A stretch of DNA of 63,682 nt, filler included, from Candidatus Zhuqueibacterota bacterium (GCA_016783505.1; 7 parts of 7 records of this genome joined end to end with filler, not necessarily neighbours in it); one strand, 5' to 3'. Positions 9,818-56,900 are shown, counted from the whole stretch's first letter. The notes: a model not told the origin generated them from the letters alone. Numbers and translations: made by a program.

Positions 9818-9917
9818 NNNNNNNNNNNNNNNNNNNNNNNNNNNNNNNNNNNNNNNNNNNNTTAATTAATTAANNNNNNNNNNNNNNNNNNNNNNNNNNN
9901 NNNNNNNNNNNNNNNNN
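9818..9917. other. Artificial contig spacer
   Basis: N-run with TTAATTAATTAA linker. Confidence 0.99.
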
Positions 9918-19664: not shown

Positions 19665-19764
19665 NNNNNNNNNNNNNNNNNNNNNNNNNNNNNNNNNNNN
19701 NNNNNNNNTTAATTAATTAANNNNNNNNNNNNNNNNNNNNNNNNNNNNNNNNNNNNNNNNNNNN
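19665..19764. other. Artificial contig spacer
   Basis: N-run with linker. Confidence 0.99.
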
Positions 19765-19875
19765 ATAAGCCTAGAGAACCTCATTGCTTTAATTGTATGT
19801 TTTACAATTAGATGATTACCTATTTCGGTTAGTTTCTGTTTGGGTTTATACGGCCAGATTTGCCGTGTTTGGGAT
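19765..19875 (+). repeat. 111-bp terminal direct repeat, copy 1 (identical to 28995-29105)
   Basis: ATAAGCCTAGAGAACC...GTGTTTGGGAT at both contig ends. Confidence 0.97.
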
Positions 19876-19906
19876 TTGCTTTCGGCCGTATAAACCTATG
19901 TTATAC
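19843..19906 (+). mobile_element. Putative integron attI site
   Basis: Inverted repeat GGTTTATACGGCC/GGCCGTATAAACC, then core GTTATAC (19900-19906), the exact reverse complement of the next attC R'' GTATAAC. Confidence 0.65.
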
Positions 19907-19953
19907 AGAAAGACAAAATTCACTACATTAATTTTAATAAAGGAGGAGGAAAG

Positions 19954-20385
19954 ATGGACACAAAGCGATTTGTAATTGGAACGCTCGCGGGCGGTATCGT
20001 AATGTCCTTGGTCGGCTACCTCATCTGGGATTTGCTCTTGGCAGACTTCTTCGCCGCGAACGCGGGGTCGGCGACGGGCGTGGCCCGTGAAACCATGCTG
20101 ATCTGGGCTGTTGTGTTGGGACATTTCTCGCTGGCCGCGCTCGTCACCCTTGCGGTCGGGAGACAGGCTGGCTCCTCGACGATTGTAGATGGCTTAAAGA
20201 TTGGCGCAATCGTGGGTTTTTTGGTTTGGTTCGGTGTGGACTTCATCCACTACGGAGTCACGAACATCTCGAATCTCACGGCGACCATCGTCGACCCACT
20301 GCTCGAGATCGTGCGCACTGGAATCGGCGGCGCCGTCATCGCCGCGGTGCTTGGTCGATCACCTAAACGGCAGGAGGGGACGTGA
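19954..20385 (+). CDS. Four-TM membrane protein (DUF1761-like), in integron cassette 1
   Basis: AGGAGG RBS; four hydrophobic segments; GC-richer than flanks. Confidence 0.75.
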   Translation: MDTKRFVIGTLAGGIVMSLVGYLIWDLLLADFFAANAGSATGVARETMLIWAVVLGHFSLAALVTLAVGRQAGSSTIVDGLKIGAIVGFLVWFGVDFIHYGVTNISNLTATIVDPLLEIVRTGIGGAVIAAVLGRSPKRQEGT

Positions 20386-20529
20386 GGATGCTCCTCTGGC
20401 CCGGCCTGAAATCCCTTGTAGCTGATGAGCAGGGAATGAAAGAGCTCTAGTTTTTGGGTTGGCTCAATGCTTTACCAAGCTTTGGAGGGTATCGAAGGTC
20501 AAGCGCAGATTCCTCCCGCTGCGTGAAGC

Positions 20530-20712
20530 GCAATTTTACAATGTAGGTACACAGTTCTACTTTGATGGAATAAGTAGTAATGGTTGGCCGAAGAGTGCCC
20601 ACATTTACTACATTTACATTTTGAAGGAAGTGATTTGCCTAACGGCGTTTATTTCTACAGATTCGAGGCAGATCATTTTTCGCAAACGAGAAAGCTAACA
20701 TTGCTAAAATGA
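20530..20712 (+). pseudogene. Orphan T9SS CTD remnant inside cassette 1
   Basis: FEGSDLPNGVYFYRFEADHFSQTRKLTLLK* (20620-20712); frameshifted QFYNVG upstream. Confidence 0.8.
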
Positions 20713-20731
20713 GCGTAGACTCGGCGATCGT

Positions 20732-20864
20732 GTATAACAAGCGGCTTAACTCCGACCAAAGGGCGCCGGTTTTCTGAGCTGGTATGGTGCTATCTCAAAG
20801 CTTTTGGGGAGGTTGTAAGTAAGGTACGGTCTATCCCTTTGGCAGGTTAGCCGCAGCGTTAGGC
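20732..20864 (+). mobile_element. Integron attC site
   Basis: R'' GTATAAC, arm GCGGCTTAAC..CCAAAGGG pairs with CCCTTTGG..GTTAGCCGC, R' GTTAGGC; 133 bp. Confidence 0.88.
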
Positions 20865-20915
20865 GAGCGATAATACGGAAAGGCGGCCAAATTTGCTAGA
20901 GAAACCGAAATTCAT

Positions 20916-22274
20916 TTGAAGAGAAGGGAGCATGAAATGGCATATTACAATCAATTACCTTTCACGTACATGCAAGTTGGTATTAATAAGCATGAGTTCT
21001 CCGTCACCGCCAACTCACGAGCGGATAGTATCCGCAAGAGATTTCCCATCCCCATTTTTGTTTTCATGCTCAGCGTACTTGCTGTACTAAGCTGTACTAA
21101 ACAACCACCCCGTGAACTTAATGAAGGTCTTGCTTTTTATCGTCAGAATCAACTCGAGGAAGCGCTTCCACTCCTTGAACGTGCCGTTGAGCAGGACAAA
21201 GAGAACCCGGAGGCTTATGCCTGGCTTGCCGAGACCTACCGTCGCCTCCTGCAGATTGACAAGGCGATCAGCGCAGCGAGAAAAGCCATTGAGATAAATC
21301 CCTGTTATAGTTTCGCCCATACGGTTATGGCCGATGCATACAATCCCATGTACGGTTCCTGGGAAGGAGCAAACTTTGATACGACCTGGAAGCATCTACT
21401 CAGAGCAGTAGCATGCGATTCTGGCGATGGAAATGCCTGGCTGAGCATCTGGAGTGAGGCCATACGTCGTGGTGAGCACAACCAGATAAGAAAGGCACTT
21501 CGCTCTATGGTCGAGACCGGATTCCTGACACCAGCCGTTTTATCCTACAACCGCTGGATGTTACGCTATCTTCCAGAAAATGCGCTTCTCCTGACCAATG
21601 GAGATATGGACACCTATCCCGCTGTGGCCCTGCAGGAGGTCGAACATTTTCGTACAGACGTTGCGGTTGTGAATCAATCACTCCTCAACACAAGCTGGTA
21701 TGCACGATTCATCCGAGATCAATATGGAATACCACTTCCGTTTCGGGACACCGAACTGGATTCTCTCAGACCCTATCGGGATGAGAATGAAAACCTGATA
21801 TGGGTATCCAAACAGATTCTCAGAGGATGGCTGAATCAGCAGAAAAGGGGTGCTTTCCTGCGCCCAATTGCCATATCGGTCACTGTAAACCAGAGCTTTA
21901 TATCAGAGATCGAAGATCATCTTAAACCGATGGGAGCATTCTGGTTGTGGTTTCCAGAGCCCGTGGATAGCCCTCCGGATACCACCATGATGCGAGTCAG
22001 CCTCGCTAGTATAAACCCCGACGATTTTGCGGGTTCATTTGTGAGTCCCCAAGATCGCAGTCCCGTGCGGAGAACATACAGTAACGGCATGGTTAGAAAT
22101 GTGACTTCAACGGCTCTTCATTATAGCAACATCCTTATAAAGTCGGAACGTTTCTCGGAAGCAAACAAGATATTGACGTGGGCTGAAGAGTTCGAGAAAA
22201 AGACCGAGTTGGGGCCTGTTTTCACTGACCAAATTGCAAAACTCAAAGAAGCTGCACTACGGGAGATGAAATAG
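20916..22274 (+). CDS. TPR lipoprotein with DUF2723-like LTNGDMDTYP domain (cassette 2; start uncertain)
   Basis: VLSC lipobox, TPR repeats, directly after attC. Confidence 0.75.
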   Translation: MKRREHEMAYYNQLPFTYMQVGINKHEFSVTANSRADSIRKRFPIPIFVFMLSVLAVLSCTKQPPRELNEGLAFYRQNQLEEALPLLERAVEQDKENPEAYAWLAETYRRLLQIDKAISAARKAIEINPCYSFAHTVMADAYNPMYGSWEGANFDTTWKHLLRAVACDSGDGNAWLSIWSEAIRRGEHNQIRKALRSMVETGFLTPAVLSYNRWMLRYLPENALLLTNGDMDTYPAVALQEVEHFRTDVAVVNQSLLNTSWYARFIRDQYGIPLPFRDTELDSLRPYRDENENLIWVSKQILRGWLNQQKRGAFLRPIAISVTVNQSFISEIEDHLKPMGAFWLWFPEPVDSPPDTTMMRVSLASINPDDFAGSFVSPQDRSPVRRTYSNGMVRNVTSTALHYSNILIKSERFSEANKILTWAEEFEKKTELGPVFTDQIAKLKEAALREMK

Positions 22275-22384
22275 ACGCTCGGAAGAAGCCACTATTCAGG
22301 TCGAACAGGGTTGATAGACAGCAATGTTTGAAGTTTATGAACAGGAAAAAAGGATAATCGCAATCCTGAAGACAAAATAACTAG

Positions 22385-22726
22385 ATGAAACCAAAAAATT
22401 CAATGAATACAACTAAAACCCGGGAAGGAAGATATCTTTTAAAATTTTCCTTCCTGATCGTTGCGATTTTCTACCTATCCATATCTTTATTTCTGCCCTT
22501 TCTTCACAACCATCCTCATGATAATGGAGAATTTCATGACAATTGTCCCGCCTGCCACTTGGAGCGTCCATCCCAGTTCTGCAATGATGATCCGGATCAG
22601 ACTCAAGATTTTATCATTTTGACCAACAAATCATTTATCCGCTTTTCCCTAATCAATACTTACCTATTTACCCCCCAATTTTACCACCAAAGCCTTTCCA
22701 CTCGTGCCCCGCCCTTAGCCGCCTGA
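22385..22726 (+). CDS. DUF2946/CruR-like small protein (TM, His-rich, CxxC, C-terminal RAPP)
   Basis: Hydrophobic N-terminus; HNHPH..HDNCPACH; ends STRAPPLAA*. Confidence 0.8.
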   Translation: MKPKNSMNTTKTREGRYLLKFSFLIVAIFYLSISLFLPFLHNHPHDNGEFHDNCPACHLERPSQFCNDDPDQTQDFIILTNKSFIRFSLINTYLFTPQFYHQSLSTRAPPLAA

Positions 22727-22911
22727 TCCCCATTTTGTAAACAAGATTTCTACCTGATGTCCTTATTGTGAGATCGTCAAACAAGTCTCGGCTGGATTGG
22801 CATACTACCAGAACGACTTTTTCAGTAATCAGATTTACCGATTGATTCCTACAACCATTTTTTATTGTAAAATTAATATTATGAAATCATACTTTGAAAA
22901 AGAGATGAAAA

Positions 22912-24198
22912 GTGAATATCAATAATAAAAAGTCAATATTCATAATTATTAGTTTTGTTTTATTTTCAATGAATTTAAGTATTGCATTTTCATGTAATTT
23001 AGCAGATTTCTTATTTAACAGAAGTTATTTAACTAGACAGTGGAAAGGTTATCGCCCGAAATTGGAAGATATGGGTATTATTTTTAATTTGGATTATACA
23101 AGCGATCTATTTTCTAATGTATCTGGTGGTCTTAATTCAAAATCGGTATATCTTGATAATATAGATATTACGCTTTCTCTCGAAATGGAAAAGTTAACAG
23201 GCTGGAAAGGAACTGACCTCTATTTTTACATTCTGGGAAACCATGGAAAAAGCCCAAGCGAACTGACAGGTGATATTCAGGCTTTAAGTAATATTGATGC
23301 TTATAATACCTGGAAATTATATGAAGCCTGGATTCAAAATAAATTTTTAAATGATAGGACATCTATTTTAACAGGTCTCTATGACTTAAATTCTGAATTC
23401 GATGTTATCGAGACCGCAGGATTATTTATTAATAGCTCCCATGGTATAGGACCTGATTTTTCGCAAAGTGGAAAGAATGGCCCGTCAATCTTTCCAACCA
23501 CGTCTGTTGGTTTACGTATTAAATTTGTACTCAATGAAAAATACTATTTTCAATTTGCTGTTTTAGATGGTGTACCGGGTGACCCTGAAAATCCCAACGG
23601 TACTCACATTATTTTCAGGAAAGGAGATGGCCTTCTTCTCGCCAGTGAATGGAAGTATTGTCTACAAAGTAGTGAATCTTCTGAAGTCAATTCTACAAAA
23701 ATTGCAATTGGAGGATGGTACTATACCGGAATGTTTAATCATATTTTTAGGGAAAATATACAGGGAAAACCTGTTAACCAGACAGGCAATTATGGTATGT
23801 ATATATTAGGCGAAACCAAAATATTTTCGGAAACGAGTTCTTTAAACCAGGGAGTTTCAATATTTTCCCGGTTTGGTTTCGCTGATCCGAAAGTGAATCA
23901 GTTTCATTACTATTTTGGAGGAGGTTTTGTATATAACGGGTTAATACCTGGACGAAACGAAGATAAATTAGGTCTGGCTATAGCGACTGTGATAAACGGG
24001 GAAAACTTTAAGAAGATGAATTATCAATCCGGTAATACCGTGGATGATTTTGAAACTGCTGTGGAATTTACTTATCTGTTCTTACTTTCTCCTTGTCTTT
24101 CACTGCAGCCTGACATTCAATATATTATCAATCCTTCAATGGACAAAAAAATAAATAACGCTTTAGCAATCGGATGCCGGTTTATACTTTTGTTTTGA
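22912..24198 (+). CDS. OprB-family porin
   Basis: LEDMGI, SNIDA..KLYEAW, GLYDLNSEF, GPSIFP, QPDIQYIINP, terminal F. Confidence 0.88.
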   Translation: MNINNKKSIFIIISFVLFSMNLSIAFSCNLADFLFNRSYLTRQWKGYRPKLEDMGIIFNLDYTSDLFSNVSGGLNSKSVYLDNIDITLSLEMEKLTGWKGTDLYFYILGNHGKSPSELTGDIQALSNIDAYNTWKLYEAWIQNKFLNDRTSILTGLYDLNSEFDVIETAGLFINSSHGIGPDFSQSGKNGPSIFPTTSVGLRIKFVLNEKYYFQFAVLDGVPGDPENPNGTHIIFRKGDGLLLASEWKYCLQSSESSEVNSTKIAIGGWYYTGMFNHIFRENIQGKPVNQTGNYGMYILGETKIFSETSSLNQGVSIFSRFGFADPKVNQFHYYFGGGFVYNGLIPGRNEDKLGLAIATVINGENFKKMNYQSGNTVDDFETAVEFTYLFLLSPCLSLQPDIQYIINPSMDKKINNALAIGCRFILLF

Positions 24199-24244
24199 GA
24201 TTTAAAAAGATATTCATAATTATTTTATTCTAAAGGAGACAACC

Positions 24245-25591
24245 ATGAAAGCCTTTGGACCAAAACTATCCCTACTGTTCTTCCTGAGCCTTGCTACCTT
24301 AACCACTGCCCAGGAATCGAGCAACCCCAAAAGCATCAAGGAAGTTAATAGGGATCTGACAAAGCTCAAAGAAGAACTAAATGGACTGAAAAACGACTAC
24401 CAGGCAAAGATTGAAGAGCTTAGTGAGAAAATCAGTCAACTGGAAAAAACCAAAGCCGCAGAAGAGGAGAAAACCGAATTGGAAAAGCTGCTCAATTCGG
24501 CTCGAGATTTTGCTAAAAGAGAAAAAGAGGAAGAGGTCACTATCGCAAGAGTTTTCCGAGGAGGTCAGAGGCAGCTTCAAGCTCTTAATCCCAACATCAG
24601 CATGACCGGGGATTTTTATGGAAGCATAAGCAATGTTAGTTCTATACACCATGAACACGAAGATGAAAATAATCATGTTCATGCTCATGGGATCGTGGAG
24701 CGAAACCGATTCGCCCTCAGGGAAGCGGAATTTCACATCATAGCGCCGCTTGACCCCTTTACCCGGGGTAAATTCTTTCTCGGGGTCCCCGGGGACGGTA
24801 ATCTTCATGTGTGCGAGGCCTACATGGAGTGGTTAAACCTACCAGCAAGGATGAATCTCAAGATAGGCAAGTTCAACACTCAATTCGGCATTCTCAATCG
24901 CTGGCACGATCATGGTCTGCCGCAGATTGATAGGCCACGGGCCCTTATCAATTTGTTTGCCGGCAGTCTTAACGGCGTTGGAGTTTCAGCGAACTTCTTA
25001 TTGCCCAAGCTCTGGGCCCATGTCAACGAGCTGGATCTGGAGGTCGTGACCGGTGGAGACGGCGTGAGCTTTGATACCGCCTATGACAATGTTATAATCG
25101 TCTCTCATTTAAAAAATTATTATGACCTGACCCGGAATACCTATCTGGAAATCGGTCTCTCTGGCGCTCACGGCTGCAACGATAAGGAAAATGACTACAG
25201 AACATTTTTAGCCGCCCTGGATATGACTTACAAGTGGGTTCCGGCCGGACGGTCTCACTATCGAACCGTAGAATTCCGCAACGAGTTTTTTTATAGCCAC
25301 AGGGAGGCTCCCACGGAAAACATCAATCGAATCGGTTTCTATTCCTACATCTCAAACAGGATGGGAGCAAGTTTCTGGACGGGTGTCCGTTACGGCTATT
25401 CGGAATTGCCAAGAGAGATTGAGAAAGATTATGAATGGGACATATCTCCTTACATTGACTTCTGGCAGAGCGAGTTTGTGATGATGCGGCTACAATATAG
25501 TTACACCTATCGGAACTATGCGGAAAACGATCATTCCGTTTTTCTTCAGTCGGTCTGGTCTATGGGACCACACAAACATGAGGCTTATTAA
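24245..25591 (+). CDS. His-rich outer-membrane beta-barrel associated with Zn/Mn ABC systems
   Basis: Signal peptide, coiled coil, LNPNIS, HHEHEDENNHVHAH, FGILNRWHDH, C-terminal GPHKHEAY. Confidence 0.75.
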   Translation: MKAFGPKLSLLFFLSLATLTTAQESSNPKSIKEVNRDLTKLKEELNGLKNDYQAKIEELSEKISQLEKTKAAEEEKTELEKLLNSARDFAKREKEEEVTIARVFRGGQRQLQALNPNISMTGDFYGSISNVSSIHHEHEDENNHVHAHGIVERNRFALREAEFHIIAPLDPFTRGKFFLGVPGDGNLHVCEAYMEWLNLPARMNLKIGKFNTQFGILNRWHDHGLPQIDRPRALINLFAGSLNGVGVSANFLLPKLWAHVNELDLEVVTGGDGVSFDTAYDNVIIVSHLKNYYDLTRNTYLEIGLSGAHGCNDKENDYRTFLAALDMTYKWVPAGRSHYRTVEFRNEFFYSHREAPTENINRIGFYSYISNRMGASFWTGVRYGYSELPREIEKDYEWDISPYIDFWQSEFVMMRLQYSYTYRNYAENDHSVFLQSVWSMGPHKHEAY

Positions 25592-25727
25592 CAGAACACG
25601 GTTGCGCAATAATACCAATTTTTAAAAAAGAAGTAATCGAATGGAGTGTTGGTGTAAAATGATACCTTATACCAGATGGTTGTTCGATTTGTAGAAATTC
25701 CATGACATAAAAGAAAGGAGCATTGAA

Positions 25728-26798
25728 ATGAAGAATATCAAATTACTAGCTTTGATAGGTTGTTCGCTTCTGTTGGTGTTATCGAGTATCTTCGCCGGGT
25801 CTAACGATCCTAAAACTAAGCCCGCGCTGAGGGTGGTCACCTCTTTTTCCGATTATGCCTCCATTGCTCATGAAATAGGCAGGGAGAAGGTGATGGTGGA
25901 GTATCTCTCTTATGGGGATCAGGATCCTCACTTTGTTCCTCCGAAGCCCAGCTTGGCTCTGAAGCTGAAAGACGCGGATTTATTTGTCACCACCGGACTG
26001 GATTTGGAAATGTGGGCGACTACTCTTTTGGATAAGGCCCGCAATAAAAAGATTATGGACGGCGCCTTCGGCTATGTGACGGCCTATCCTGGCATCAAGC
26101 TTTTGCAAAAATCAACCACCGCGCTGAGTCGAACCGAGGGGGATATTCACATCTACGGGAATCCCCACATTCACACCAGCCCCATGAATTGGAAGCCCAT
26201 TTCCGAAAACATCCTCATCGGGCTGAAGAAAGTGGATCCTGATAATTCAGAATACTATGAGCTAAGACAAAGGGCTTTCGTTGACAGAGTCGATCGCGCC
26301 ATGTTTGGGGACGAATTGGATGATTTGATCGGTGGAGAAAGGTTAACTGATTTAGTCCTGGCAGGGACTCTTTTTGATTTCCTGGAGAAAGAATACAGGG
26401 GCAAAAAATTGCTGAACAAATTGGGTGGGTGGCTAAAGAAGGCTCTCCCCTTTCGGGGCAAAAAGGTCATGGCCTACCATAAGAATTGGGCCTATTTTGC
26501 TCGGGATTTCGGACTAACCGTAATCGGCTATATTGAACCAAAACCGGGAATTCCCCCCACACCGAAGCATGTACAGCGAACCATTAGTCTGATTAAAGAA
26601 CACGGCGTCGATGTCATGCTGGTAGCGAGCTATTTTGAAAGAAGGAAGCCCAACACGATAGCCCGAAAAACGGGTGTGAAAGCCCTCTTCTTGCCCCTTT
26701 CGGTGGGTGGGATTCCAGAAGTTTCGGATAATTTCAAGCTTATTGATTACTGGATTGATAGCATCAATGATGCCATGGAAAGACCATTCAGCGAATAA
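25728..26798 (+). CDS. ZnuA/TroA-family metal-binding protein
   Basis: QDPHF, GNPHIH, YHKNW, EPKPGIPP. Confidence 0.9.
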   Translation: MKNIKLLALIGCSLLLVLSSIFAGSNDPKTKPALRVVTSFSDYASIAHEIGREKVMVEYLSYGDQDPHFVPPKPSLALKLKDADLFVTTGLDLEMWATTLLDKARNKKIMDGAFGYVTAYPGIKLLQKSTTALSRTEGDIHIYGNPHIHTSPMNWKPISENILIGLKKVDPDNSEYYELRQRAFVDRVDRAMFGDELDDLIGGERLTDLVLAGTLFDFLEKEYRGKKLLNKLGGWLKKALPFRGKKVMAYHKNWAYFARDFGLTVIGYIEPKPGIPPTPKHVQRTISLIKEHGVDVMLVASYFERRKPNTIARKTGVKALFLPLSVGGIPEVSDNFKLIDYWIDSINDAMERPFSE

Positions 26799-26822
26799 CT
26801 ATCCTAAGATCAGGAGCAATCA

Positions 26823-27635
26823 ATGCTGGAAACTCTTAAATTTTTATCCATTCAGATTATACTGTTGACAGTCGTAACCTCTGTGCATACCTATCTGGGG
26901 CTTCACGTCATCCGGCGGGGGATCGTATTCTCCGACCTGTCCCTAGATCAGTTGGCGGCATTCGGCGTGATAGTAGGAATCAGCCTGGGTATAGAGGGCG
27001 GTACCACCGGATCCTATATTGTCTCTTTTGTTGCCGTACTGATGGGTTCCGTGCTGCTTGCTTATGTGAAACCCAAGAACAAAATGATCCCCCAGGAGGC
27101 GGTCATCGGTATTATTTATGGCCTGGCCTTGGTTGCCTCTATCATGGTAGCCGACAAGTTCTCCGGCGGTTCGGCCTATGTCACCCAGATCTTGTCAGGC
27201 TGTATGCTCTGGGTGAGTTGGCCCCTGGTCCTGGTGACCGTTTTGGTCTATATCGTGTTATCCCTTTTTCTATATAAATATCGGAAAATATTCATCGCCA
27301 TCACCGAAAAGACGGAAGAGGTGGATAACGAGAATTTTTGGGATCTATTATTTTTCATCTCCCTGGGCATCATTACGGTACTCATCGTTCCCATCGCCGG
27401 CGTTCTTTTGGCGTACGGCTTCTTAATGATCCCGGCGGCCATTGCCGCCCTTTTCACCAAAGGCTGGGCACAAGGGCTGAGAATCGGCTGGATCATTGGG
27501 TTTATTGCCTCCATGGTTGGCCTTTTCTCTTCTTATTTCTTTAAGCTACCTTATGGCCCCAGTCTGGTACTGGCTCTCGGAGCATTTTTTATTGGCGCGC
27601 TGATTCTACGCTATATGTTACCCGAACGGAAATAG
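26823..27635 (+). CDS. Metal ABC transporter permease (ZnuB/ABC-3)
   Basis: YLGLHVIRRGIVFSDL, QEAVIG, multiple TM segments. Confidence 0.9.
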   Translation: MLETLKFLSIQIILLTVVTSVHTYLGLHVIRRGIVFSDLSLDQLAAFGVIVGISLGIEGGTTGSYIVSFVAVLMGSVLLAYVKPKNKMIPQEAVIGIIYGLALVASIMVADKFSGGSAYVTQILSGCMLWVSWPLVLVTVLVYIVLSLFLYKYRKIFIAITEKTEEVDNENFWDLLFFISLGIITVLIVPIAGVLLAYGFLMIPAAIAALFTKGWAQGLRIGWIIGFIASMVGLFSSYFFKLPYGPSLVLALGAFFIGALILRYMLPERK

Positions 27636-27660
27636 TTTGCTCACCGAAAGGACTTAAAAT

Positions 27661-28479
27661 ATGTGGGAAATAATTCAGTTCTTATTTCCGCCTTTTGTCG
27701 CCTGTCTAACTATGATAGTGATCTTTGGGTACCTAGGCATTCATGTTCTGGAAAGGGAAATCATATTCATAGATATCGCCCTGGCCCAGATTGCGGCGGT
27801 AGGTTCTACTTCGGCTTTTATTCTTTTTAGAACGGAAGAGCACAGCCTCATAGCCTATATCTGTGCCCTTGGCTTTTCTTTACTGGCAGCCGTTTTCTTC
27901 TCTCAAGTTGGAAAGAGGGTAACCCAAATTCCCCAGGAGGCGATAATAGGTGTTTCCTATGCAATTGCTGCTGCCGCCGCTCTATTTCTCCTCGCTATGG
28001 CTGCTGGTGGGGATGTTCACCTTGAGCATATGCTCACCGGAAGTATACTCTGGGCCAAATGGTCTGATATTCTTCCATGTGCCGGAGTGTATGCTGCAGT
28101 TGGATTATTTCATTACATTTTTCGGGATAAATTCAGAAAAATATCCCGGGATTATCAGGGCGCCATCAAAGAGGGAATCAAAGTTGGGCGGTGGGATTTT
28201 CTGTTCTATGCCTCTTTGGGAATTGTGGTCACATTTTCGATCCGGATTGCCGGAGTGCTGGTGGTATTTTCATTCCTGATTATCCCGGCGACTTTTGCGG
28301 CTATGTTTGCCCAAAGCTGGGGAAAAAGACTGACCATCGCCTGGGGTATCGGGTTAGCGGCCTCGATAGCAGGTCTGGCCTTCTCTTACCTCTTCGATTT
28401 CTCCAGCGGGCCCTCGGTGATTACATTCCTGGGATTGGCTCTGATCGTGACAGCTCTGGTGAAACAGTCAAAGCCGTAA
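27661..28479 (+). CDS. Second metal ABC transporter permease (ZnuB/ABC-3)
   Basis: YLGIHVLEREIIFIDIALAQ, QEAIIG, GVLVVFSFLIIPA. Confidence 0.9.
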   Translation: MWEIIQFLFPPFVACLTMIVIFGYLGIHVLEREIIFIDIALAQIAAVGSTSAFILFRTEEHSLIAYICALGFSLLAAVFFSQVGKRVTQIPQEAIIGVSYAIAAAAALFLLAMAAGGDVHLEHMLTGSILWAKWSDILPCAGVYAAVGLFHYIFRDKFRKISRDYQGAIKEGIKVGRWDFLFYASLGIVVTFSIRIAGVLVVFSFLIIPATFAAMFAQSWGKRLTIAWGIGLAASIAGLAFSYLFDFSSGPSVITFLGLALIVTALVKQSKP

Positions 28480-28540
28480 TGAGCATAAAATTATAGGGAA
28501 ATAAAAGATTTCCTCGTCAGCGACACCTTTCAAAAACAAC

Positions 28541-28573
28541 AAAGCCGGGTCTCAAGCCCGGCTTTTTCCTTTT
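28541..28573 (+). terminator. Rho-independent terminator of the metal operon
   Basis: AAAGCCGGG-tctcaag-CCCGGCTTTTT. Confidence 0.8.
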
Positions 28574-28647
28574 TCAAATGTCCATTACAAAAATCCTCTG
28601 GTTACACCATTTAAAGACCCCAAGGTAAAAAATTATCAATTTTTTAC

Positions 28648-28676
28648 TTGCAATTTTTTGAATAATTATTTAAATT
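28648..28676 (+). promoter_or_regulatory. Sigma70-like promoter upstream of the intI remnant
   Basis: TTGCAA-17-TAAATT. Confidence 0.45.
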
Positions 28677-28745
28677 AAAAAATACGCTATACCTTGGTTT
28701 AAAATCAAGGGGGCTTTTAACGCCTATGCCGCCGTGATTGAGAAT

Positions 28746-28895
28746 ATGGATGAGCTTTTTAGTCAAAATTCCACTGCTGAAAAGAAACAGTAACTCCTCA
28801 ATCAGGTTCGTTTTGCCATTCAAACCAAACATTACAGCATCAGAACTGAAGAATCATATATCCATGAATTACATCATCCCAAACATTTCTCTTAG
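28746..28895 (+). pseudogene. intI: Integron integrase N-terminal remnant
   Basis: MDELFSQNSTAEKKQ*LLNQVRFAIQTKHYSIRTEESYIH..HHPK..*, matching the IntI LLDQVR..IR..HYS.RTE..Y start; catalytic domain absent. Confidence 0.85.
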
Positions 28896-28994
28896 GTTTA
28901 TATGCCTTCATTTGGCGTATAAGAAACTCAACTTGTTGAATAAATGGATTTTGAAAGGAGATATTGGGGGGGGTTATACGGCATTTTTAGACGT

Positions 28995-29105
28995 ATAAGC
29001 CTAGAGAACCTCATTGCTTTAATTGTATGTTTTACAATTAGATGATTACCTATTTCGGTTAGTTTCTGTTTGGGTTTATACGGCCAGATTTGCCGTGTTT
29101 GGGAT
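28995..29105 (+). repeat. 111-bp terminal direct repeat, copy 2
   Basis: Identical to 19765-19875. Confidence 0.97.
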
Positions 29106-29205
29106 NNNNNNNNNNNNNNNNNNNNNNNNNNNNNNNNNNNNNNNNNNNNTTAATTAATTAANNNNNNNNNNNNNNNNNNNNNNNNNNNNNNNNNNNNNNN
29201 NNNNN
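29106..29205. other. Artificial contig spacer
   Basis: N-run with linker. Confidence 0.99.
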
Positions 29206-30246
29206 CTCTTTCAAACGGTAGAAACGCCGATGGTCCTTCCCTGAAAGCTCGTCCCACTCCAGCTCATACTCCTCCAATCGTTTTTGTGACACATTCTCTT
29301 CCCTGATCGCCCGAGCGGCCACCTGACCGGCCAGCCTTCCCGCCTCCATGGCGTTAATAATTCCACCTCCGCTCATAGGGTTAGACTGATGAGCTGCATC
29401 CCCGGCTAACATAAACCCGTTGGTCACCATTCTTTTCACGGGTTTATCAATGGGTACCCCACCGGCCACCATGGTAAGGATGGCCGCCCCCGGAAACCGT
29501 TTTTCAACAAACTCATTTAAATAAGAAAGGGGGGAACGATTCTTCACATAATCCCCGCGGATTCCGATACCGACGTTGGCCAACCTCTCCCCTTTAGGGA
29601 AGATCCAGACGTAGCCGCCCGGGGCCACTTTTTTGCCGAAGAAGAAGTCGCAAAATCGTTGGTCAATGGCGGAATGGGCTAGGGTCATCTGAGCACAGAT
29701 CTCCATGTTACGAGGAGTGGTCATGGTACGCAGACCGGCCCAGCGGCCGGCACGGGACTCTACCCCATCAGCACCGATTACCACCTGAGCCCCGATCATC
29801 TGTTCCCGGCCATCGTAAAGGACAGTCACCCCCTTCACCCATCCGTTTTCCCGGATTAGACCGTTCACAAAGGCCTTAGTCAATATTCGGACACCCCTGG
29901 CCGCCGCTTGCCTGGCCAGCTCATAATCAAACACCTTGCGATTTAGGATATAACCCAATTCTTGGCTGTATACGGGAACCACCGTCCCATCAGGGGCGAT
30001 GAACCGAACCCCATCAATGCGGTTAGCAATCCAGCGGTCATCCGGTTCCATAAACTCTTTTAGCCCCTTCACCCCCACCCCCTCGGCGCACCTCACCGGA
30101 ACGCCTATCTCCCGGTCCTTCTCCAGAAGAAGAACGCTAACTCCCCCCTCAGCCGCTGTCCGGGCCGCCAGCAACCCCGCCGGCCCCCCGCCGACCACGA
30201 TGACATCATAAGATTCTTTGAAAACCAAGGCTCTCTCCCATCCCAC
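29206..30246 (-). CDS. Geranylgeranyl reductase family flavoprotein (archaeal DGGGPL-reductase-like), 3'-truncated
   Basis: GGGPAG, PVRCAEG, LNRKVFD, ADGVES, PGGYVWIFPKG, GDAAH..PMSGGGI. Confidence 0.9.
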
Positions 30247-30253
30247 TCAAACT

Positions 30254-30451
30254 TTAAACCATATCTTCTTGAAAGGTCAGCGCTTCAAATGGACAGACAT
30301 GAACACAGTTCAGACAATCCGTGCAGGCTTCCTTGTCTATAACTATTTTGGCCTCATATAGTTCGATGCAATCAGCTGGACAGACGGCCACACACACCCC
30401 GCAAAAGTCACATCTTCCTTCCCTAATTTCGATCATTTCCTCACCTGCCAA
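30254..30451 (-). CDS. 2x[4Fe-4S] ferredoxin
   Basis: CDFCGVCVAVCP and CTDCLNCVHVCP. Confidence 0.93.
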   Translation of the reverse strand: MAGEEMIEIREGRCDFCGVCVAVCPADCIELYEAKIVIDKEACTDCLNCVHVCPFEALTFQEDMV

Positions 30452-31406
30452 TGACTGGATAGATCACATCAAACCGGGCCCGATAATACCATCGGGTGGC
30501 TAAAAAGACGACTCCCAGAAAAATTAAATAAATGGGAAACAATAATGAAACTAAAAAGACAAACACACGTCCGCTGGCCTGAGAAGAAATGAGAAAGGTC
30601 CTCTTGTCCTTTTTGATCAACGCCCGGACAAAAAAGGGTAAAGAAATAACGGCGGCCACAAGACAGATAGGATTGTTTTGAATCACGCTGAAAATTATTG
30701 CCAACCCCAGCAGGCCCGTGCTTAACAGAGCGGCATTTCTCATCCCCAAAAAAAGACCAGTTGTAACGTCCCCGTTGTTTTGGTCCCCACAATTATCTGG
30801 AATGGTGGTATTCACAAAGGTCGCTCCAACCGCCAACACATAAGGTAGAGAAAACCAGAAGACCTTATGGGAATAGGGGGCTACCGTCAGCCAACCGACC
30901 AAGAAGGCTACGAAACCGTATCCCAAGGCATTAAACAATAAGTCCCAAAAGGGTCTTCCTTTGAACTTAAAAGGAGGAACACTGTATAAAACCCCCATGA
31001 AAAAGGAAACAACAAACAATAGAACCAATGGAAATGAAGAAGAGAGCATCAAAACAGTACAGATCAGCACAAGCAAAACGGTTTCTAACCTTGCTTGTTT
31101 AAGGGAAATTAAGCCTTTGGGAATAAAAAACAATTTGTCATTAATCAAGTCCGATTCCCGATCATAGATTTGATTAATTATATATATAGCTCCCATTAGC
31201 AGGGTGTAAGCCAGCCAGACGTACCACACCCTCTCCGAAAAGAAAAACCTGGTCAACTCGGGAAGGTATTCTTGGTACCATTGTAGAAATCCTGTAAAGG
31301 GAACGACCTTCCCCTGGGTTTTCAGCCAGCCGTGATAAAATCCCAATAAAAAAAATGTCCACACCGGTATCAGGATAATCGGCCGCAGGAAGAAGAGGTA
31401 ATCCAA
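30441..31406 (-). CDS. UbiA-family prenyltransferase
   Basis: RP near the N-terminus, NQIYDRESD..N, YSVPP..K, PDNCGD..G..T, many TM segments. Confidence 0.88.
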   Translation of the reverse strand: MDYLFFLRPIILIPVWTFFLLGFYHGWLKTQGKVVPFTGFLQWYQEYLPELTRFFFSERVWYVWLAYTLLMGAIYIINQIYDRESDLINDKLFFIPKGLISLKQARLETVLLVLICTVLMLSSSFPLVLLFVVSFFMGVLYSVPPFKFKGRPFWDLLFNALGYGFVAFLVGWLTVAPYSHKVFWFSLPYVLAVGATFVNTTIPDNCGDQNNGDVTTGLFLGMRNAALLSTGLLGLAIIFSVIQNNPICLVAAVISLPFFVRALIKKDKRTFLISSQASGRVFVFLVSLLFPIYLIFLGVVFLATRWYYRARFDVIYPVIGR

Positions 31407-38515: not shown

Positions 38516-38615
38516 NNNNNNNNNNNNNNNNNNNNNNNNNNNNNNNNNNNNNNNNNNNNTTAATTAATTAANNNNNNNNNNNNNNNNNNNNNNNNNNNNN
38601 NNNNNNNNNNNNNNN
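38516..38615. other. Artificial contig spacer
   Basis: N-run with linker. Confidence 0.99.
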
Positions 38616-47691: not shown

Positions 47692-47791
47692 NNNNNNNNN
47701 NNNNNNNNNNNNNNNNNNNNNNNNNNNNNNNNNNNTTAATTAATTAANNNNNNNNNNNNNNNNNNNNNNNNNNNNNNNNNNNNNNNNNNNN
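47692..47791. other. Artificial contig spacer
   Basis: N-run with linker. Confidence 0.99.
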
Positions 47792-56800: not shown

Positions 56801-56900
56801 NNNNNNNNNNNNNNNNNNNNNNNNNNNNNNNNNNNNNNNNNNNNTTAATTAATTAANNNNNNNNNNNNNNNNNNNNNNNNNNNNNNNNNNNNNNNNNNNN
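56801..56900. other. Artificial contig spacer
   Basis: N-run with linker. Confidence 0.99.

Follow-up and report, generated by a model that had tools for sequence, protein, structure and literature searches.

Does a short open reading frame (ORF) at the head of a metal-uptake operon encode a protein that works in its own right, or a nascent chain whose synthesis governs the genes behind it? This question is raised by a locus of a Candidatus Zhuqueibacterota bacterium (GCA_016783505.1), analyzed here within a joined stretch of 63,682 nucleotides (nt) of its genome (hereafter, the window). An earlier note on this DNA had described a 113-amino-acid (aa) ORF with a transmembrane (TM) segment, a His/Cys motif and a C-terminal RAPP, located 185 nt before five same-strand genes, and each of these features was confirmed. 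We consider it fairly probable that the ORF encodes a ribosome-arrest leader of the kind represented by CruR and CutF, sensing metal and acting in cis, and that it forms part of a separate branch associated with zinc-type importers; within this reading, the stalling itself, the identity of the metal, the sign of control and a role for Rho are what we infer.

The reality of the leader was addressed by comparison. A phmmer/HMMER search over 1.84 billion representative proteins returned 27 proteins at E ≤ 1e-3, nearly all of about 100 aa, and pattern scans produced 22 genome loci and 35 metagenome loci, 57 loci in total. Removal of 13 duplicates left 44 unique loci, in two of which (L013 and L041) the leader runs off the contig; the 42 unique complete relatives and the window ORF together form the 43 leaders used for the conservation counts. 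A word-index homologue search with the single ORF as query found the ORF itself and nothing else, and a survey of its own phylum found the source genome to be the sole member in the species-genome collection compared. All 43 leaders share the same residue at nine positions (H41, H43, H51, C54, A56, C57, R107, P109 and P110), which bears out the significance attached in the earlier note to the RAPP motif, the CxxC and the His cluster. The putative stall motif reads RAPP in 36 leaders, RGPP in four and RSPP in three. The gap that separates its arginine from the second cysteine is likewise fixed, with 49 residues in 34 leaders, 44 in four, 46 in three and 50 in two, and the tail that follows RxPP comprises one to five residues in 42 of the 43 (exactly three in 20) and nine in one. 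The mean frequency of the commonest residue is 0.80 in the stall motif and 0.67 in the metal site, as opposed to 0.26 in the spacer between them. Because the length of this 49-residue spacer is kept while its sequence is free, it fits a ruler rather than a fold.

With motifs invariant across 42 relatives, the leader is not a chance ORF, and its membership in a real, conserved family is confirmed. A functionless reading frame or a product of mis-assembly might have been suspected from the lack of a visible Shine-Dalgarno (SD) sequence before either candidate start (22385 and 22403) and from the assembly of the window from contigs of a metagenome-assembled genome (MAG); conservation refutes this explanation, which we regard as having a negligible probability. 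The assembly is also matched elsewhere, as contigs X1 and X3 from two studies, possibly the source of this DNA, span 22250-25600 without differences, and contig X5 from a third study, in which the OprB junction is seen, crosses 22735-23178, again without differences.

The predicted anatomy of the leader is that of a small membrane-anchored protein with a linker of fixed length ahead of its terminal motif (Table 1). The start is likely M7 (ATG at 22403), which is the gene call of the genome collection and would give a product of 107 aa. AlphaFold2, run on the family alignment, returned a single confident helix (predicted local distance difference test score, 84-97), with low confidence (about 51-56) at residues 71-100. 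The Kyte-Doolittle maximum of 2.34 falls over residues 22-40, six Lys/Arg residues lie within residues 1-20 and eight Asp/Glu residues within residues 41-75; since hydropathy and charge distribution fit such a topology, the leader is probably an N-in signal anchor. The CPAC motif occupies residues 54-57. Among the 127 six-frame ATG ORFs of at least 60 aa in the window, the leader alone carries R[AGS]PP in its last 12 residues. It also passes a rule-based filter for CutF-like leaders (PMC9973294), being shorter than 150 aa, with a PP (109-110) no more than 15 residues from its end and a signal at the N-terminus, and having a neighbouring gene on the same strand within 1000 nt. It further combines three features of the CruR type, namely an N-terminal export signal or N-in TM segment, a CxxC and a RAPP near the stop.

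Motifs of this sort are established arrest signals. RAPP stalls ribosomes (PMC10951233), and RAPP and RGPP, although depleted from proteomes, are over-represented at the C-terminal ends of small secreted proteins whose genes precede metal genes (PMC12992588). The closest parallel is CruR (Bp2923) of Bordetella pertussis, the prototype of DUF2946 (PF11162), which carries a CXXC and a RAPP three residues from its end and exerts Rho-dependent control: the stall keeps the operon on, whereas copper acting through the CXXC relieves the stall and Rho terminates transcription; the rut region was mapped to a C>G bubble within the 3' portion of cruR, which is unstructured (PMC9426467). The account of CruR given in the earlier note, with CxxC and RAPP serving copper-dependent control, agrees with this description (PMC9426467). 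Like CruR, the window leader is the small first gene of a metal-uptake operon, has an N-terminal export signal and an invariant CxxC, continues through an unconserved linker of fixed length with a C>G bubble to a RAPP exactly three residues before the stop, and is followed by a long intergenic region and by uptake genes that should be shut off by metal. The two differ in the spacer (45 residues in CruR, 49 in the window ORF), in the added invariant H-x-H...H cluster of the window family, in the cargo (a copper TonB-dependent receptor there, a porin and a ZnuA/ABC-3 importer here) and in lineage, the window organism lying outside the Proteobacteria. In addition, the window ORF has no PF11162 match. 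The supplementary files of the CruR paper, as far as available, contain no ZnuA, OprB, ABC-3 or family motif (PMC9426467). CutF of Rhodobacter capsulatus shares with the proposed window leader the idea that an exported nascent chain would sense metal in the periplasm, and shares with the relatives a masked ribosome-binding site (RBS) (PMC9973294; bioRxiv 10.1101/2025.02.05.636593); the window leader differs from it in having no RBS-masking helix. ApdA, ApdP and SecM likewise have a C-terminal RAPP-type motif on a small exported or membrane protein upstream of a regulated gene (PMC10951233; PMC12992588). In contrast to the window leader, these peptides monitor Sec/YidC and have no metal site, and no sec or yidC genes lie downstream of the window leader, where porins and a metal importer are found instead.

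The earlier note had proposed a search against DUF2946, and this search did not place the window ORF in that family: the ORF has no match to DUF2946 or to DUF2607 (PF10795) at E ≤ 1. A more graded picture emerged from the family as a whole. Six of the 43 members match DUF2946 at E ≤ 1, the best with 19.6 bits and all below the Pfam gathering cut-off of 23.7 bits, and the five matches at E ≤ 0.05 all belong to members with a gap of 44 or 46; no member with a gap of 49 matches DUF2946 or DUF2607 at E ≤ 0.05. On DUF2946, the leaders of L019, L020 and L049 (gap 44) and of L012 (gap 46) align from the CxxC through to the model end, with scores of 16.3-19.6 bits, and six-frame DUF2946 matches on three gap-44 or gap-46 leaders reach 15.1-17.7 bits. 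The leader of L022 (gap 46) passes the DUF2607 cut-off of 24 bits with 28.1 bits over model positions 12-99 of 100, and that of L012 scores 17.6. In a protein atlas, the nearest clusters are unnamed and three of 30 matches carry DUF2946, in one of them on 13% of members, which is a lead only. Taken together, the family looks like a third, unmodelled branch of one superfamily, beside DUF2946 and DUF2607. Separately, a six-frame DUF2946 match of 25.4 bits in the source genome (G000:C1) was rejected as spurious, as it contains three stops and overlaps minus-strand genes.

DUF2607 corresponds to ZrgD, which heads zrg, a zinc-uptake operon under Zur control in Vibrio and other Vibrionaceae; ZrgD is co-transcribed with zrgA-C and listed as of unknown function (PMC9817125). 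ZrgD and the window leader are both His-rich, membrane-anchored proteins of about 100 aa encoded by the first gene of an importer operon, with the window leader standing before ZnuA and ABC-3 genes as ZrgD heads a zinc operon, the metal here being presumably zinc. They differ in the binding protein, which is ZrgA (DUF2796) there and of ZnuA type here, and in the DUF2607 domain, to which the window ORF has no match. In the source data of the survey, DUF2607 occurs at least 40 times; the 30 rows listed all end in RAPP, with three to five further residues, and most precede DUF2796 (ZrgA) (PMC12992588). The case of ZrgD could also be read the other way, in that the leader might chiefly serve as a small membrane protein with a function of its own, binding metal in the periplasm as an accessory to the importer, with RAPP structural or merely slowing translation. 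The conserved metal site and membrane anchor would suit such an accessory, as would the co-transcription of ZrgD with its importer genes and its lack of an assigned function (PMC9817125). Such a protein would not be expected to keep the length of its spacer and not the sequence, to show low AlphaFold2 confidence over residues 71-100, to carry its motif always one to nine residues from the stop, or to have RxPP codons that covary with the SD of the next gene (see below), and RAPP-like motifs are counter-selected in ordinary proteins (PMC12992588). We therefore judge an accessory role to be quite unlikely.

The genes that accompany the leader also argue for a regulatory link to metal import. Context was assessed by tblastn at the 57 loci with the window proteins as queries, and counts refer to the 42 unique relatives. 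In 32 of them the first gene after the leader is a homologue of the 448-aa porin that is encoded second in the window operon; ZnuA comes next in 28 of these 32, the remaining four running out of DNA, and two permeases usually follow ZnuA. By Pfam, ZnuA and/or ABC-3 genes lie downstream in 16 of the 21 genome loci that have downstream DNA. In contrast, an OprB homologue was found by tblastn in none of the 57 related loci. The conserved cargo is thus a coiled-coil porin, ZnuA and two permeases, with OprB, which the earlier note had listed as cargo, outside it; the note's description of a metal-uptake operon headed by this ORF is supported. The exceptions comprise L008, L012 and L022, with TonB-dependent receptors downstream; L028 and L050, with long ORFs; L019, with Band_7 genes and a P-type ATPase; L020, with other ABC parts; and L031, L034 and L042, with too little downstream DNA. 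In one relative (L016/L048), a gene for a DtxR-type (Fe_dep_repress) regulator lies 3' of the leader-porin-ZnuA operon (12468-12974 of L016). A crude count of shared operator motifs upstream of 41 leaders found only AT-rich 8-mers to recur, in at most nine of the 41, and no Zur-box-like motif. As to the metal, Synechocystis ZnuA is the nearest match of the window binding protein (E 5.6e-18), whose histidines H68, H147 and H251 are conserved without exception across 15 aligned family members. Because the cargo is of ZnuA type and the family is linked to DUF2607/ZrgD, the sensed metal is probably zinc; it may instead be copper, nickel or cobalt.

How would a stalled ribosome act on the downstream genes? 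Two features of the RNA bear on this step. First, the window spacer has a C-G skew of +0.46, which falls in the top 0.4% of windows of the same length, with a maximum C-G excess of 28 in 80 nt (22635-22714); all but one of the 43 leaders have a positive spacer skew (mean over the family, +0.22), and in 31 it lies in the top 5% of the respective locus. Second, pairing between the RxPP codons and the SD window of the next gene was assessed in 38 relatives with an intergenic spacer of at least 30 nt (L005, L006 and L028 were dropped for shorter ones). The codons pair with their own SD window at a mean of -8.91 kcal/mol as opposed to -7.80 kcal/mol with those of other loci, with CCCCC found alongside GGGG(G) and CCUCC alongside GGAGG, and 17 of 20,000 permutations reach the own-pair value, a count that overstates independence since it relies on automatic start calls and on mutually related loci. 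For the same reasons we take the covariation to be suggestive and not proof. Both the C>G skew and the SD pairing imply that the stalled ribosome would represent the on state, which suits an importer in need of shut-off by its own metal. In the window, where SD pairing is absent, the C>G stretch is strong and a Rho gene is present in the source genome, CruR-type Rho-dependent attenuation is favoured, and we hold with moderate confidence that it would be the output step.

The opposite sign of control has to be weighed here. In CutF, copper switches a detoxifying oxidase on by opening an RBS-masking helix (PMC9973294), and an arrest leader of this sign, in which the stall is reinforced by metal and acts on translation alone, without Rho, would also be compatible with the covariation of RxPP codons and next-gene SD sequences in relatives and with a complementarity in the window between 22703-22722 and 22788-22804 (-16.5 kcal/mol; reached by two of 500 dinucleotide shuffles). 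However, 108 nt separate the partner strand of this helix from the OprB start downstream, the strand contains no OprB SD, and the RAPP codons pair weakly with the region upstream of either porin (-0.5 kcal/mol for OprB and -3.6 kcal/mol for the 448-aa porin). The earlier note had suggested folding the leader end and the intergenic region for RBS-masking or terminator structures, and neither emerged: the fold of 22690-22935 is no better than that of shuffles (z -0.81), a second fold of the 3' end and spacer gives z +0.72, a terminator scan found none between leader and OprB, and the window has no RBS-shielding stem-loop of the CutF-like kind, while such pairing is present in relatives. Moreover, induction by metal suits detoxification genes and not an importer with a ZnuA-type binding protein. 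Control of the CutF sign is, on balance, unlikely.

Several points weigh against the arrest leader of CruR sign that we prefer, or against parts of it. The window ORF matches neither Pfam model, its RAPP codons pair weakly with both porin upstream regions, its folds are unremarkable and the permutation count in the relatives is inflated by kinship and automatic start calls. The C>G skew could merely reflect the amino-acid composition of the spacer. The three histidines of the binding protein form what we take, from general rules, to be a zinc-type as opposed to a manganese/iron-type ligand set, and the choice of metal leans in part on that assumption. With regard to the sensed compartment, the CruR authors argue for cytoplasmic sensing and against a role for the signal peptide (PMC9426467), and with regard to direction, the sign of CutF is opposite to that of CruR (PMC9973294).

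The mechanism that we propose for the CruR-sign leader would proceed as follows. The N-terminal helix would insert N-in, and the ribosome would stall on RAPP with codons 22709-22711 in the P site and 22712-22714 in the A site (stall geometry from PMC10951233). During the stall, 49-53 residues would separate the His3Cys2 site from the peptidyl-transferase centre, which would put the site in the periplasm, at a point just past the tunnel and the translocon. While metal is scarce, the stall would persist and the operon would be on; once metal, probably zinc, binds, folding of the site would pull on the chain and release the stall, the ribosome would terminate and the operon would be turned off. 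In most relatives, the output would be the release or sequestration of the next gene's SD by the RAPP codons, whereas in the window it would be Rho-dependent termination in the 185-nt intergenic spacer, with Rho loading where the ORF is rich in C and poor in G, in its 3' half. The spacer would thereby act as a 49-residue ruler set to the periplasmic mouth of the translocon, and folding force as the means of release. An engineered zinc-finger/SecM study reportedly provides a precedent for folding force acting on a stall. In its strongest form, the proposal is that of a natural zinc-sensing transmembrane arrest peptide, in which the His3Cys2 site binds periplasmic zinc on leaving the translocon, timed to RAPP by the 49-residue ruler, folding force ends both the stall and the synthesis of porin and importer, and the leader shares one superfamily with ZrgD/DUF2607 and DUF2946; we put this forward tentatively, as a possibility somewhat less likely to be right than wrong.

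Table 1. Coordinates of the leader, its parts and the downstream genes in the window.
Feature	Position	Strand	Basis or remark
Leader ORF, 113 aa	22385-22726	+	ORF call; relatives align from M7 onward
Predicted N-in TM/signal-anchor helix, residues 12-40	22418-22504	+	AlphaFold2, hydropathy, charge
Putative metal site, residues 41-57, HNHPHDNGEFHDNCPAC (HNHPH..H..CPAC pattern)	22505-22555	+	Invariant residues in relatives
Spacer, residues 58-106 (49 residues); DNA C-rich/G-poor	22556-22702	+	Length kept, sequence free
RAPP codons CGT GCC CCG CCC, residues 107-110	22703-22714	+	R107, P109 and P110 invariant
Tail LAA and TGA stop	22715-22726	+	Tail of three residues
Intergenic region, 185 nt, leader to GTG 22912	22727-22911	+	Gene calls
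OprB-family porin, start GTG	22912-24198	+	Pfam (PF04966, E 1.9e-56)
448-aa porin, no Pfam family; N-terminal coiled coil and 16-strand barrel	24245-25591	+	AlphaFold2, Foldseek
ZnuA-type substrate-binding protein	25728-26798	+	Pfam (PF01297, E 3.8e-44); three His ligand positions
ABC-3 permease 1	26823-27635	+	Pfam (E 2.7e-23)
ABC-3 permease 2	27661-28479	+	Pfam (E 1.7e-30)
Terminator-like hairpin closing the operon, 10 pairs then T-run	28541-28565	+	Terminator scan

The window operon departs from the family pattern at its first position. The OprB gene has a G+C content of 26-38% as opposed to 45-52% in its surroundings, the low stretch covering the gene together with the AT-rich end of the spacer (22830-24244). 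With its low G+C content and its absence from all 57 related loci, OprB looks like a lineage-specific addition, which suggests that it was recently inserted ahead of the porin that usually follows the leader; as the contigs described above cover the region, it is not an assembly artefact. For the usual porin, AlphaFold2 predicts a long N-terminal coiled coil (about 75 residues) ahead of the barrel, and the Foldseek matches are porins such as OmpT, OprP and DcaP. Its family has invariant H221 and H223 and a C-terminal MGPHKHEAY, and a His-rich loop, HHEHEDENNHVHAH, occurs in the window protein alone and is absent from the family consensus. No ABC ATPase gene lies in the window operon before the terminator, despite ZnuA and the two tandem ABC-3 permeases (25728-28479), and among the Pfam-scanned genome loci (L002-L023) an ABC_tran gene directly follows ZnuA only in the divergent L017 type.

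A scan of the plus strand for sigma-70-like promoters found none in 22727-22911 or immediately before the leader. The highest-scoring sigma-70-like match in this region, at 25071-25098 (TTGATA, 16 nt, TG-TATAAT; 11 of 12 positions), falls within the coding sequence of the 448-aa porin, from where it could serve ZnuA and the permeases as an internal promoter. A look-up of RNA data sets listed none that contains the locus. The window itself is a chain of separate contigs of a MAG (2.5 Mb, 89 contigs, about 60% complete) with paired runs of 44 N every 9.4 kb or so; filler occupies 9818-9917, 19665-19764, 29106-29205, 38516-38615, 47692-47791 and 56801-56900, and the leader and operon lie on the single piece 19765-29105 (G000:C11). 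On the minus strand at 29158-31406, inspection by eye alone suggests three ORFs, for an FAD-type (GGGPAG) reductase, a small protein resembling 4Fe-4S ferredoxins and a polytopic membrane protein, which together recall a geranylgeranyl reductase and a UbiA-type prenyltransferase.

Part of this association is already contained in the literature. In the survey source data, the label 'Carbohydrate porin' follows RAPP upstream ORFs 54 times as opposed to five for AAPP (fold 42, adjusted p 2.4e-29; PMC12992588), so that leaders with CxxC and RAPP ahead of an OprB-type porin already form a class listed there, without discussion. The HDNCPAC motif of our family has no match among the rows listed in the source data of this EMBO J survey (PMC12992588), which proves no absence. 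In the available main texts of the CutF paper (PMC9973294) and the 2025 survey (PMC12992588), zinc, ZnuA and porins are unmentioned, as is ABC in the former. Our literature searches on zinc-linked arrest peptides, DUF2607 and ZrgD found no paper proposing an arrest function.

The family thus appears to be a new branch of a known kind of regulator, whose function we infer from anatomy and comparative evidence. To our knowledge, the known metal-sensing arrest leaders are copper systems (CruR and CutF), and control of zinc import is the province of Zur. The branch described here would extend nascent-chain metal sensing to zinc, with another ligand set, another fixed ruler length and a zinc-type cargo, and the exact 49-residue spacing would offer a handle on how binding outside the ribosome reaches the peptidyl-transferase centre. 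A testable function for ZrgD/DUF2607 would follow. If the proposal of a single superfamily with ZrgD/DUF2607 and DUF2946 is also true, Zur would share the control of zinc uptake with translational arrest as a general second layer, in organisms ranging from Vibrio to uncultured candidate phyla.

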